Assembly: GCF_054482525.1 (NCBI RefSeq)
Contig: NZ_CM137006.1
Strand: one strand, 5' to 3'
Length of the DNA: 64,000 bases
The notes beneath the pieces were generated by a model, which was not told where the DNA came from, did no database searches, and worked only from the letters and a program-made list of their open reading frames with translations. Positions 9,096 to 11,278 of the stretch are shown here, piece by piece. The translations under genes were made by a program, and so were the position numbers. Each line of letters begins with the position of its first letter. The first letter of the stretch is position 1.

Positions 9096-10178
9096 TTACG
9101 ATTTTCTCATTAACAGCCACAGGCTGATTAAGAAGAAGCTGGCGCTTGGCAACAGTGCGCCAATGATCGGCGGGATGCCATAAACCAACGTCAGCGGGCC
9201 GAAGATCTGGTCCAGTACGTAGAAAACAAAACCGAAGCTGATACCGGTGACCACACGCACGCCCATCGGTACGCTACGCAGTGGGCCAAAGATGAACGAC
9301 AGCGCCATCAACATCATCACCGCCACGGATAGCGGCTGGAAGATTTTGCTCCACATGTTGAGCTGATAACGTCCGGCATCCTGACCGCTCGACTTCAGAT
9401 ACTTCACATAGTTGTGCAAACCACTGATGGAGAGTGCATCCGGGTCCAGCGCCACCACGCCCAGTTTGTCTGGCGTGAGGTTGGTTTTCCAGGTGCCGCT
9501 CACCGTCTGCGAACCGGTGATCTGTTTCGGATTGGTCAAATCAGATTCATCAACCTGCGACAGACGCCAGACTTTATGTTCCGGGTCAAACTTCGCGGTA
9601 GCGGCATAACGTACGGATTGCAGACGACGATTCTCGTTAAAGGCATAAATACTGATGCCACCTAACTCCTCGTCACCTTTAACCCGCTCAATGTAGACGA
9701 AGTTGTTGCCATCTTTCGCCCATAAGCCTTGCTGGGTAGAGAGCAACGAGCCGCCGTACATCGCCTGCGCACGGTAGTTACGCGCCATCTGTTCGCCCTG
9801 CGGCGCGACCCATTCGCCAATCGCCATCGTCAGCAAGACCAGCGGAATGGCGGTTTTCATCACCGACAGCGCAACCTGCATACGGGTAAAACCAGAAGCC
9901 TGCATCACCACCAGTTCGCTGCGCTGCGCCAGCATCCCAAGACCAAGCAACGCCCCAAGCAGAGCCGCCATCGGGAAGAAGATTTGCACATCTTTCGGCA
10001 CGCTCAGCAAGGTATACATTCCTGCGCCTAACGCGTCGTAACTCCCCTGCCCGGCTTTTTTCAGCTGATCGACAAACTTGATAATGCCCGACAGCGACAC
10101 CAGCATGAACAGCGTCATCATGATGGTGGTGAAAATAGTTTTACCGATATAGCGGTCAAGTACGCCAAAAGGTTGCAT
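9096..10178 (-). CDS. lptG: LPS export ABC transporter permease
   Basis: ORF 9096..10181 begins with a GTG codon; the ATG one codon in gives the 360-aa LptG (MQPFGVLDRYIGK...). Confidence 0.92.
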   Translation of the reverse strand: MQPFGVLDRYIGKTIFTTIMMTLFMLVSLSGIIKFVDQLKKAGQGSYDALGAGMYTLLSVPKDVQIFFPMAALLGALLGLGMLAQRSELVVMQASGFTRMQVALSVMKTAIPLVLLTMAIGEWVAPQGEQMARNYRAQAMYGGSLLSTQQGLWAKDGNNFVYIERVKGDEELGGISIYAFNENRRLQSVRYAATAKFDPEHKVWRLSQVDESDLTNPKQITGSQTVSGTWKTNLTPDKLGVVALDPDALSISGLHNYVKYLKSSGQDAGRYQLNMWSKIFQPLSVAVMMLMALSFIFGPLRSVPMGVRVVTGISFGFVFYVLDQIFGPLTLVYGIPPIIGALLPSASFFLISLWLLMRKS

Positions 10179-11278
10179 CACACCGCTCCTTTACGCGAAA
10201 AACTGGCGCGCAGGCGGCGGACCGGCACGGTGTCCCAAAGGTTGAGAACAATCGCCAAAGCCAGATAAATCAGGTTAACGGTCCACATCCACAGCGTCGG
10301 GTCCAGCTTACCTTTACCGCCGTTCGATTTCAGGGAGGTCTGGATCAGGAAGAAAAGTAGATACAGCAGCATGGCTGGCAACATCGACAGTACGCGTCCC
10401 TGACGTGGGTTAACCACGCTCAGCGGTACGACCATAAGTGCCATCATAAACACGGTGAATACCAACGTGATACGCCAGTTCAGTTCTGCGCGGGCACGAT
10501 CGGTGTCAGTGTTCCACAATGTGCGCATGTCCATCTGGTCGGTATCGTTCGGGTCGAGCGCCACCGCCTGGTGACCAATGATCGCCTGATAATCCTGGAA
10601 ATCCGTAATGCGGAAATCACGTAACAGTGCAGTGCCTTCGAAGCGCGTTCCCTGGTTGAGAGTGACGACCTGGGAGCCGTCGCGCAGCTGGGTTAAATGT
10701 CCGGAATCGGCCACCACCACAGAAGGACGTGCATTACCTTTTGGTCGAATTTGTGCGAGGAACACATCTTTGAAATCGCTGCCGTCAACGCTTTCGATGA
10801 ACAGCACCGAGCTGCCATTAGTCGCTTGCTGGAATTGCCCTTGCGCCAGCGCCGCCATGCCAGGGTTCGCTTTCGCTTCTGCTAACACTTCATCCTGATG
10901 ACGCGATGACCACGGTCCCGCCCACATCACGTTAACCGCCGCGACGATTGCCGTGAATACCGCAAGGATCATTGCCGCTTTCACCAGAACCGCTTTGCTC
11001 AAGCCGCAGGCATGCATTACCGTAATTTCACTTTCGGTATACAGTTTGCCCAGCGTCATCAGCAGCCCGAGGAACAGGCTTAATGGCAGGATAAGCTGCG
11101 CCATTTCCGGCACGCCCAACCCGAGAAGGGAGAGCACCAGATTCGCCGGAATATCGCCGTCAACCGCTGCGCCGAGGATCCTCACTAACTTTTGACAGAA
11201 GAAGATCAAAAGCAAGATGAAGAGTATCGCCAGCTGGCTTTTGAGCGTCTCCCGCACCAGATATCTTATGATTATCAC
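10178..11278 (-). CDS. lptF: LPS export ABC transporter permease
   Basis: 366 aa; stop overlaps the lptG start (TGATG). Confidence 0.92.
   Translation of the reverse strand: MIIIRYLVRETLKSQLAILFILLLIFFCQKLVRILGAAVDGDIPANLVLSLLGLGVPEMAQLILPLSLFLGLLMTLGKLYTESEITVMHACGLSKAVLVKAAMILAVFTAIVAAVNVMWAGPWSSRHQDEVLAEAKANPGMAALAQGQFQQATNGSSVLFIESVDGSDFKDVFLAQIRPKGNARPSVVVADSGHLTQLRDGSQVVTLNQGTRFEGTALLRDFRITDFQDYQAIIGHQAVALDPNDTDQMDMRTLWNTDTDRARAELNWRITLVFTVFMMALMVVPLSVVNPRQGRVLSMLPAMLLYLLFFLIQTSLKSNGGKGKLDPTLWMWTVNLIYLALAIVLNLWDTVPVRRLRASFSRKGAV

Follow-up and report, generated by a model that had tools for sequence, protein, structure and literature searches.

The window, a 64-kb stretch of DNA, corresponds to the leuX–cpdB region of E. 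coli. Its genes were compared with the PGAP annotation of strain 19KM1776 and with the curated annotation of K-12. The sequence differs from that of 19KM1776 only over approximately its first 900 bp and by 5 SNPs; relative to PCN033 there is a further difference of 36 bp in yjgL. The tally of genomes with at least 80% query coverage for the IS1397 insertion is not site-specific, the query being mainly IS sequence. Among the 33 same-strand adjacent gene pairs in the window, six form the full set of stop/start overlaps (Table 1). An earlier note on this DNA had claimed these six, and their exact sizes are found in both PGAP and curated K-12, with the RelBE-like cassette absent from the latter. 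At lptF/lptG, positions 10176 to 10180 read CATCA on the plus strand and hence TGATG on the minus strand. Close spacing is not in excess here, with 6 of 33 pairs lying within -8 to +6 nt compared to 24% genome-wide in E. coli (p = 0.54). The overlaps of lptF/lptG (-1), holC/valS (-1), tamA/tamB (-4) and chpS/chpB (-7) fall inside this coupling-competent range, whilst those of relB/relE (-11) and ytfT/yjfF (-14) lie outside its limits of about -8 to +6 nt. Junctions were compared across species for lptF/lptG and holC/valS, and the other four pairs against K-12 alone, in which the tamA/tamB, chpS/chpB and ytfT/yjfF overlaps are identical.

Table 1. Overlaps, associated features and upstream extensions of the six-frame ORF track in the window. 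For extensions, the number of added codons and the codon that opens them are given.
Feature	Position	Strand	Sequence or size	Remarks
lptF/lptG overlap	10176..10180	-	TGATG, 1 nt	stop TGA 10180-10178, start ATG 10178-10176, shared A
holC/valS overlap	13631..13635	+	TAATG, 1 nt	holC stop TAA / valS start ATG
tamA/tamB overlap	55430..55433	-	ATGA, 4 nt	tamB start ATG / tamA stop TGA
chpS/chpB overlap	50847..50853	-	ATGGTAA, 7 nt	chpB start / chpS stop
relB/relE-like overlap	37808..37818	-	ATGAACTATGA, 11 nt	RelE/StbE-family toxin start / RelB/DinJ-family antitoxin stop
ytfT/yjfF overlap	45957..45970	-	GTGATAAAACGTAA, 14 nt	yjfF GTG start / ytfT stop TAA
lptG CDS	9096..10178	-	360 aa	ATG start; ATG at homologous position in 72/72 species
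lptF CDS	10178..11278	-	366 aa	GTG start; GTG in 77/79 species
Shine-Dalgarno for lptG	10186..10191	-	AAGGAG	within lptF codons 363-365, 7 nt before ATG
Promoter-like element	13506..13535	+	TTGCCA-N18-TAGACT	holC codons 106-115; probable valS promoter
relB (antitoxin)	37808-38050	-		directly upstream of relE, 11-nt overlap
relE-like toxin	37528-37818	-		same strand as relB
ahr extension	1242..1283	+	+14 codons, ATG	spurious
idnR extension	6327..6356	+	+10 codons, TTG	spurious; SD strength alone not discriminating
lptG extension	10179..10181	-	+1 codon, GTG	not in earlier list; GTG in 17/72 species
ytgA extension	11392..11400	-	+3 codons, GTG	not in earlier list
holC extension	13151..13189	+	+13 codons, ATG	spurious; in strain-specific intergenic repeat
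yjgN extension	17739..17765	-	+9 codons, ATG	spurious
tabA extension	22566..22574	-	+3 codons, GTG	spurious
bdcA extension	23296..23373	+	+26 codons, GTG	spurious; extends beyond divergent bdcR start
pyrL extension	24828..24893	+	+22 codons, TTG	spurious
ridA extension	26442..26513	+	+24 codons, TTG	spurious; starts directly 3′ of pyrI stop
mgtL extension	29997..30284	-	+96 codons, GTG	spurious; not in earlier list
treC extension	32571..32717	+	+49 codons, TTG	spurious; crosses last 98 nt of treB and intergenic hairpin
RelE-like toxin extension	37819..37896	-	+26 codons, GTG	spurious; within antitoxin gene
fbp extension	43761..43943	+	+61 codons, ATG	spurious; just +21 in K-12
ytfT extension	46980..47003	-	+8 codons, TTG	not in earlier list
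ytfR extension	48496..48546	-	+17 codons, ATG	spurious; absent in K-12
chpS extension	51099..51104	-	+2 codons, GTG	spurious; GTG within AAGGAGGTG SD
msrA extension	57303..57368	+	+22 codons, TTG	spurious
ytfK extension	59942..60007	-	+22 codons, TTG	spurious

The lptF/lptG junction is conserved across species. A T[GA]ATG (-1) arrangement was counted automatically in 72 of 80 Enterobacteriaceae species, rising to 73 once L036 was read by eye. Within it the lptF stop codon varies (TGA in 18 species, TAA in 54), the -1 geometry being kept. Junctions of the eight other species, read by eye, comprise one TAATG (the 73rd), six abutting TAAATG and one frameshifted assembly, and no wider spacing was found among the 80. 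The Shine-Dalgarno (SD) sequence of lptG, which forms an anti-SD duplex of -8.3 kcal/mol, is conserved at synonymous sites of the lptF codons beneath it: Gly364 is GGA in 60/60 species and Lys363 is AAA in 56/60. Few four-fold sites of lptF (~3%) match GGA in invariance, and the last 8-codon window of the gene is in the top 2.3% for synonymous constraint. Moreover, the fractional abundances of LptF and LptG stay within about two-fold of one another across conditions (tables of Mori et al.). Coupling of this pair is well supported indirectly, by the conserved geometry, the conserved SD and the near 1:1 protein levels. The -1 geometry, the lptG ATG and the SD inside lptF are what has been conserved, and this supports a functional close coupling of the two genes of an obligate 1:1 complex. 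Conservation within a single family, among 80 species that are not phylogenetically independent, is nevertheless no proof of selection for coupling. A ribosome finishing LptF would halt with the lptG ATG, 7 nt 3′ of the conserved AAGGAG, in its decoding centre. Initiation of LptG could then be by the same ribosome (termination-reinitiation) or by a new 30S subunit at a site held open by the terminating ribosome. Either route would tie LptG output to that of LptF, as needed by the LptB2FG transporter, in which LptF and LptG pair 1:1.

The holC/valS junction has the same geometry, with TAATG (-1) in 54 of 63 species and spacings of +6/+8 nt in 8, a Buttiauxella-like group. Inside holC, ~100 nt upstream of valS, is a promoter-like element that is the sole consensus match in positions 13000-13700. 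Both of its hexamers are invariant across 52 species, and in the same species it spans 10 consecutive invariant third-codon positions, compared to 17% invariant gene-wide. Because the element is invariant across these species, coupling is probably not the sole route to valS expression, and since such deep conservation implies that valS is expressed independently, the claim of coupling is weakest for this pair. It is probable that valS has its own promoter inside holC and that coupling is at most supplementary; most expression of valS would then not have to run through holC. We lean slightly towards the more specific reading that holC codons 106 to 115 are a conserved sigma-70 valS promoter, in which case most ValRS transcript would start in holC and the TAATG would not be what sets valS expression. 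Transcription of valS was reportedly mapped in the late 1980s. We found no description of a valS promoter inside holC in a literature search, and the promoter may well already be in the older literature.

Two of the overlapping pairs are toxin-antitoxin genes. The antitoxin of the RelBE-like cassette, an accessory insertion absent from K-12, scores 130.1 bits against NF008412 (cut-off 96) over profile positions 1-80 of 80, and the toxin scores 29.9 bits against TIGR02385 (cut-off 27.9). Type II operons place the antitoxin first, in short overlap with the toxin gene, as in parD kis/kid and relBE; coupling has reportedly been shown for parD kis/kid of plasmid R1. The pairs described here are alike in that the upstream antitoxin gene has a strong SD (-13.4 and -9.5 kcal/mol) and the toxin gene a weak one (-3.8 and -3.9), with overlaps of 7 nt in chpS-chpB and 11 nt in RelB/DinJ-RelE/StbE. 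A point of difference is the accessory nature of the RelBE-like insertion. Coupling would also suit these two pairs: with a strong-SD antitoxin gene ahead of a weak-SD toxin gene, toxin would stay at or below the level of antitoxin.

We infer translational coupling at the six overlaps from their geometry and from the behaviour of their class; the geometry itself, its conservation and that of the SD were observed. A literature search found no experimental coupling tests on any of the six pairs. The junctions leave no space for an intergenic terminator or promoter. We take five of the six pairs to be complex-forming (LptF-LptG, TamA-TamB, the YtfT-YjfF permease pair, ChpS-ChpB and RelB-RelE), with holC/valS as the exception. 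The presence of interacting partners in 5/6 overlapping pairs exceeds the 30.4% baseline (P = 0.012). Published work finds the strongest enrichment for spacings of -4 and -1, and a 4.5-fold enrichment for heteromeric complexes among gene pairs at short distance. The co-directional TGATG, TAATG and ATGA junctions found here resemble the termination-reinitiation class of coupling at -1/-4 nt overlaps, of which trpE-trpD and trpB-trpA are classic cases (Huber et al. 2019, PMC6728339, and 2023, PMC10666635; reviewed by Brown & Wade 2025, PMC12548453). Further likenesses to this class are an SD that sits, for lptG and yjfF, in the gene ahead, products that are mostly subunits of one complex and a geometry conserved across species for lptF/lptG and holC/valS, the two pairs compared. 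By the same logic as for lptF/lptG, coupling of tamA/tamB (ATGA) is plausible. Unlike the class, the 7, 11 and 14 nt overlaps are at or past the edge of the efficient range, and holC and valS encode unrelated proteins, this pair seemingly carrying an internal promoter. Coupling at chpS/chpB, relB/relE and ytfT/yjfF is less certain and may be weak, because published assays show that coupling drops as the overlap lengthens; for ytfT/yjfF the logic would apply with a lower expected efficiency.

Alternatively, the overlaps could be neutral, left behind as genomes compact and as stops and starts drift, with the downstream genes translated independently from their own ribosome-binding sites. The SDs before lptG (-8.3 kcal/mol) and yjfF (-8.2 kcal/mol) are strong enough to make independent initiation possible, whereas those of tamB, chpB and relE are weak (-3.8 to -4.7 kcal/mol) and would serve it poorly. 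Folding of 90-nt windows revealed no RNA structure at the junctions beyond that of shuffled controls (z -0.5 to +1.8), which lends no support to an RNA-unfolding version of coupling, although such a mechanism could act at longer range, and unstructured junctions would be accessible to free 30S subunits. Moreover, the geometry is mutationally 'sticky' and would preserve itself, since altering a shared base harms the upstream and the downstream gene together. The spacing can move a little, to TAAATG at lptF/lptG and, in the Buttiauxella-like group, to +6/+8 nt at holC/valS, yet drift beyond +8 nt was seen in 0/80 species for lptF/lptG and 0/63 for holC/valS. The unrelated functions of holC and valS, and the promoter-like element inside holC, fit neutrality; the interacting partners of the remaining five pairs do not, and published tests found 13 of 14 native overlapping pairs to be strictly coupled. 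On this evidence we regard a purely neutral origin as improbable and favour coupling, graded by pair as above.

Lastly, we turn to the gene starts. The ORF track runs each ORF from the first ATG, GTG or TTG after a stop codon, and 19 of the 56 genes (34%) are over-extended in it. All 15 genes listed as such in the earlier note are indeed over-extended, by 2 to 61 codons; the list is incomplete, missing lptG, ytfT, ytgA and mgtL. The shorter starts preferred there are the curated K-12 starts for all shared genes except ytfT, which differs by one codon. For this gene K-12 uses a GTG at 46982 and PGAP an ATG at 46979; either may be correct, and the 14-nt overlap is the same with both. The over-extension had also been called systematic. 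It is real, but it is what a longest-ORF rule would be expected to give, and it is no more frequent than chance: off-frame control walks from the same starts were extended in 51 of 112 cases (46%; Fisher p = 0.18) and triplet frequencies predict 0.54 (34% vs 46–54%). Being no commoner than chance, it is best viewed as a mechanical artefact. This matches the known longest-ORF artefact in gene finding, in which about half of random upstream walks reach an NTG before a stop, with no difference except that 34% is, if anything, below chance. The over-long starts would thus be products of the first-NTG rule, with the true starts downstream. In 16 of 19 genes the short start has the better SD pairing. 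SD strength as a sole start criterion was rejected as it fails for holC, idnR and treC; the SD-like GGTGAGGA of holC is part of a strain-specific intergenic repeat. Annotated starts are ATG in 52 of 56 genes, compared to GTG or TTG in 14 of the 19 starts specific to the ORF track (Fisher p = 5e-8).

It is unlikely that some of the longer starts are real, yielding N-terminally extended proteins or dual proteoforms; the best cases would be lptG and ytfT, in each of which a GTG precedes the ATG by one codon, and the idnR TTG at 6327. E. coli genes with two start sites have been described, and the idnR TTG has an SD-like GGGGGAAGA (-8.6 vs -7.3 kcal/mol). Curation of K-12 places the ytfT start at the upstream GTG, and manual inspection in TetRP gave a signal at that 2014 start; however, the TetRP authors call one-codon differences poorly resolved. 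Of the over-extended genes ytfT alone appears in the TetRP alternative-start tables, in which weakly expressed genes give no signal, so those tables hold no support for the longer starts elsewhere. The extensions of holC, fbp and ytfR are absent or shorter in K-12, and those of holC and lptG are not conserved across species. Several would also reach into or past neighbouring genes, with treC crossing treB, relE crossing relB, and bdcA and fbp passing divergent starts. Upstream in-frame starts are rare genome-wide, Ribo-RET having found only 6 and 36. The small-protein paper of Weaver et al. makes no mention of ytgA under that name. It is very unlikely that lptG in particular starts at the GTG (10181-10179), with a canonical 4-nt GTGA overlap in place of the 1-nt TGATG: this GTG, the in-frame codon directly before the ATG, is the start in the mechanical ORF list, has a near-equal SD energy (-7.9 vs -8.3 kcal/mol) and would give the commonest published overlap class (-4), but it lies 4 nt from the AAGGAG compared to 7 nt, within the usual optimum, for the ATG, PGAP and curated K-12 both use the ATG, and the upstream codon is mostly ATA, GTA or CTA, with GTG in 17/72 species, for the most part where lptF ends in TGA, against a universal ATG (72/72).

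Taken together, these data very probably reflect two ordinary things, namely short stop/start overlaps within operons, at which coupling would operate, and a start artefact of longest-ORF calling. Both are real, but both are already known features of bacterial genomes. The value of the analysis is one of quality control, in that the gene starts of the window are right and start sites should not be taken on trust from a raw six-frame ORF track. Overlaps of this kind belong to textbook operon architecture and leave current understanding unchanged. The holC/valS pair illustrates that sharing the geometry of coupled pairs need not mean dependence on coupling; if its internal promoter is genuine, holC, the gene of a replication subunit, would be under a dual coding-plus-regulatory constraint. 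The lptF/lptG pair provides a worked example of how an essential 1:1 membrane complex, LptF-LptG, fixes its geometry and in-gene Shine-Dalgarno sequence while the stop codon varies.

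Enumerating the same-strand adjacent gene pairs of the window by script (n = 33) revealed exactly six that overlap, all at precisely the lengths reported in the earlier note. The overlap geometry is identical in K-12 for the five pairs that are present there. Spacings of -8 to +6 nt were found in 6 of the 33 pairs (the four shortest overlaps together with tamB-ytfP at +2 and pyrL-pyrB at +3), against 707 of 2,987 pairs (24%) genome-wide in E. coli, and the frequency of short spacing in the window is not unusual (binomial p = 0.54). The stop codon of ytfR (TAA) lies within the ytfT Shine-Dalgarno (SD) sequence (GCGTAAGGAG, 46980-46992, minus strand). 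The spacing of this ytfR-ytfT junction is +10 nt from the K-12 ytfT start and +13 nt from the PGAP start, which makes it one of the '+10 nt' operon junctions that Huber et al. 2023 described for E. coli.

Overlapping stop/start pairs of the window
Feature	Coordinates	Strand	Overlap	Sequence
lptF/lptG overlap	10176-10180	-	1 nt	CATCA on +, TGATG on -
lptF stop and lptG start	10180-10178 and 10178-10176	-	one base common to both	TGA and ATG
holC/valS overlap			1 nt	TAATG
tamA/tamB overlap			4 nt	ATGA
chpS/chpB overlap			7 nt	
relB/relE-like overlap			11 nt	
ytfT/yjfF overlap			14 nt	

One genome scan with LptF recovered 80 loci from distinct Enterobacteriaceae species (83-100% protein identity). 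The T[GA]ATG junction was kept in 72 of these by automatic count (54 TAATG, 18 TGATG). The remaining eight, read by eye, comprised one TAATG (giving a total of 73), one frameshifted assembly and six abutting TAAATG junctions from six species of the Buttiauxella/Cedecea group; no wider gap was present among the 80 species' junctions. The codon preceding the lptG ATG is mostly ATA, GTA or CTA, with GTG in only 17 of 72 species, whilst the ATG is universal. Therefore, lptG starts at the ATG with an overlap of 1 nt, and a 4-nt GTGA overlap from a GTG start was rejected on these same counts. The start regions of lptG (10176-10183, minus strand) and ytfT (46979-46984, minus strand) both read GTGTGATG, offering tandem in-frame GTG-ATG candidates from which the K-12 annotation takes ATG for lptG and GTG for ytfT.

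The motif AAGGAG lies 7 nt upstream of the lptG ATG, within lptF codons 363-365. Gly364 is GGA in 60/60 sequences, an invariance matched by approximately 3% of the four-fold sites of lptF, and Lys363 is AAA in 56 and AAG in none. The motif is kept beyond the needs of the protein. Moreover, the final 8-codon window of lptF is among the 2.3% with the least synonymous variation, and in the proteome of Mori et al. (PMC8144880) the fractional abundances of LptF and LptG differ by no more than about two-fold under the conditions covered. The conserved geometry, the SD sequence, the low synonymous variation and the near-equal abundance thus support the view that lptF contains a functional ribosome-binding site and that synthesis of both permease subunits is tightly linked.

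Two models of coupling exist in the literature: either the terminating ribosome reinitiates, or the upstream ribosome unfolds an inhibitory structure. Folding 90-nt windows at all six downstream starts gave no energy gain over shuffled sequences (z -0.5 to +1.8), and therefore the unfolding model finds no local support; termination-reinitiation, or de novo initiation that is simply facilitated, is likelier at these junctions. In published assays, coupling peaks between -4 and +3 nt and declines as the overlap lengthens, and strict coupling was seen for 13 of the 14 native overlapping pairs assayed. Heteromeric complexes are 4.5-fold enriched among short-distance pairs (30.4% vs 6.8%), and for five of the six overlapping pairs in the window the two products join in a single complex (P = 0.012 relative to the 30.4% baseline). 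We infer coupling at these six loci, and the label of translational coupling used in the earlier note is reasonable for a putative mechanism.

In the two toxin-antitoxin pairs, SD energies (anti-SD duplex) are -13.4 and -9.5 kcal/mol for the antitoxins and -3.8 and -3.9 kcal/mol for the toxins. With a strong antitoxin SD and a weak toxin SD, toxin output would follow, not exceed, antitoxin output. Both pairs are organised in the usual type II manner, and the RelB/RelE-like pair, which is accessory, scores above the NCBIfam cut-offs. This RelB/DinJ-RelE/StbE cassette (37528-38050, minus strand) lies between nrdG and cybC, is absent from K-12, and occurs in 454 of 5,426 complete E. coli genomes, chromosomal every time. 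The neighbouring cybC is intact (128 aa) in the window and a pseudogene in K-12.

The holC/valS TAATG is kept in 54 of 63 species, with spacings of +6 or +8 nt in a Buttiauxella-like group. Chi, the HolC product, is unrelated to ValRS, and valS has a weak SD (-3.3 kcal/mol). A sliding window places the strongest synonymous constraint in holC around codons 103-115, not at the gene end. Codons 106-115 (13505-13536) contain ten consecutive third positions that are invariant across 52 Enterobacteriaceae species, compared with 17% invariant third positions across the whole gene; if sites are treated as independent, a run of this kind would arise with a probability of roughly 3e-6. The region's only promoter-like match, TTGCCA-N18-TAGACT (13506-13535, plus strand), in which TG precedes the -10 hexamer, coincides exactly with the invariant run, and both hexamers are invariant across the 52 species. 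On sequence grounds, the simplest reading is that this element inside holC is probably a valS promoter. No transcript initiated at it would include the holC start, in which case valS could not rely on coupling alone, and coupling as the sole mechanism would fail for this pair. A literature search for a valS promoter in holC found no description, and the older literature may contain one.

The ORF track is a mechanical six-frame list in which each ORF begins at the first ATG, GTG or TTG (NTG) after a stop. Applying this rule to the 56 annotated protein genes, by comparing each annotated start with the first in-frame NTG after the upstream stop, showed 19 (34%) to be over-extended. These include all 15 named in the earlier note and four that it missed, namely lptG (+1 codon), ytfT (+8), ytgA (+3) and mgtL (+96). 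The rate is not above chance: in upstream walks from the same starts in the two wrong frames an NTG preceded the stop in 51 of 112 cases (46%), and window-wide triplet frequencies predict 54%. The over-extension that the earlier note calls systematic is therefore a plain product of the longest-ORF rule on any sequence, a standard artefact. The ORF-track GTG of ytgA (11400) would overlap, as GTGA, the stop of ytgB, a small ORF (18 aa, GTG start, 11397-11453, minus strand) lying 5 nt upstream of ytgA; ytgB is 100% identical to K-12, where it is annotated, but lacks a PGAP annotation in the closest strains.

Two independent annotations were compared, the PGAP annotation of strain 19KM1776 and the curated K-12 MG1655 record. 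Among the shared genes, only ytfT has a curated K-12 start that differs from the short start, namely a GTG one codon upstream of the PGAP ATG. The annotated start forms the stronger anti-SD duplex in 16 of 19 genes (sign test p = 0.004), the exceptions being idnR, holC and treC, and ATG accounts for 52/56 annotated starts whilst GTG or TTG accounts for 14/19 ORF-track-only starts (Fisher p = 5e-8). In K-12 the holC and ytfR extensions vanish and that of fbp drops from 61 to 21 codons. The holC ATG was found in 63 of 65 Enterobacteriaceae species, with the extension missing in 39 and variable in length in the others. The upstream holC ATG of the window (13151) sits in an intergenic repeat (…CCCTCTCCCTAAGGGAGAGGG…GGGTGAGGA), which explains its misleading SD-like score; K-12 has REP-type sequence instead. 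The pepA-holC intergenic region (13057-13189, 133 nt; 159 nt and REP-type in K-12) carries a palindromic CCCTCTCCC...GGGAGAGGG / GGGTGAGG repeat, and it is this repeat that creates the spurious in-frame ATG.

Other extensions run through neighbouring genes. That of treC traverses both the treB 3' end (98 nt) and a hairpin with the perfect palindrome GGGGCGCAATTGCGCCCC, that of the relE-like gene traverses 89 nt of relB, and those of bdcA and fbp reach beyond the starts of the divergent genes bdcR and mpl. The 18-nt treB-treC palindrome (32677-32694, plus strand) lies in a 49 nt intergenic region. In the RelE-like toxin, the RelE/StbE model match begins at toxin residue 5 (profile position 2), which fits the short start. 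Amongst published data, a tetracycline-profiling study that looked for alternative starts up to 60 nt from the annotated one (Nakahigashi et al., PMC4909307) includes in its tables only ytfT from this window; the ytfT signal was judged to be at the 2014 K-12 GTG start, and the authors warn that the method resolves differences of one codon poorly. Across the whole genome, Ribo-RET yielded only 6 in-frame upstream starts in BW25113 and 36 in BL21, and real extensions are therefore rare. The lines of sequence evidence agree, and the starts chosen in the earlier note are right.

The 64-kb window is a piece of the E. coli chromosome that spans leuX to cpdB and is reversed relative to K-12 (~4.435-4.497 Mb), and 5,425 of 5,426 complete E. 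coli genomes match a 4-kb piece around the finding. Strain 19KM1776 is collinear with the window and identical to it apart from approximately the first 900 bp by tRNA-Leu and five SNPs; in PCN033 the same ~900 bp differ and yjgL is longer by 36 bp. The mismatch (1 to ~900, beyond tRNA-Leu at 1004-1088) was seen against both strains compared there, in each of which an integrase gene abuts the leuX-site tRNA, and suggests a different island at this integration site in the window. An 18-bp tandem repeat in yjgL (21150-21435, minus strand; ~16 copies, 6-aa unit) accounts for its length polymorphism (623 aa in the window, 604 aa in K-12, 36 additional bp in PCN033). The ytfI homologue (60910-61821, minus strand), named hypothetical protein by PGAP, is 303 aa against 312 aa in K-12. 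Inserted between yjgA and mpl is a transposase of IS1397, an element of the IS3 family, that has a programmed frameshift (40908-42256, minus strand, flanks to 42370), adjoined by a REP-like palindrome (42337-42370); IS1397 is absent there in K-12, and among the matches listed the exact insertion with both flanks at 100% identity occurs in the three closest strains only.

Each factual detail of the earlier note that was tested proved correct. Its overlaps fall into a class that is well described, the -1/-4 stop/start and short operon overlaps; like the toxin-antitoxin layout and the ORF-start artefact they add nothing new, all three being already known and of low interest.
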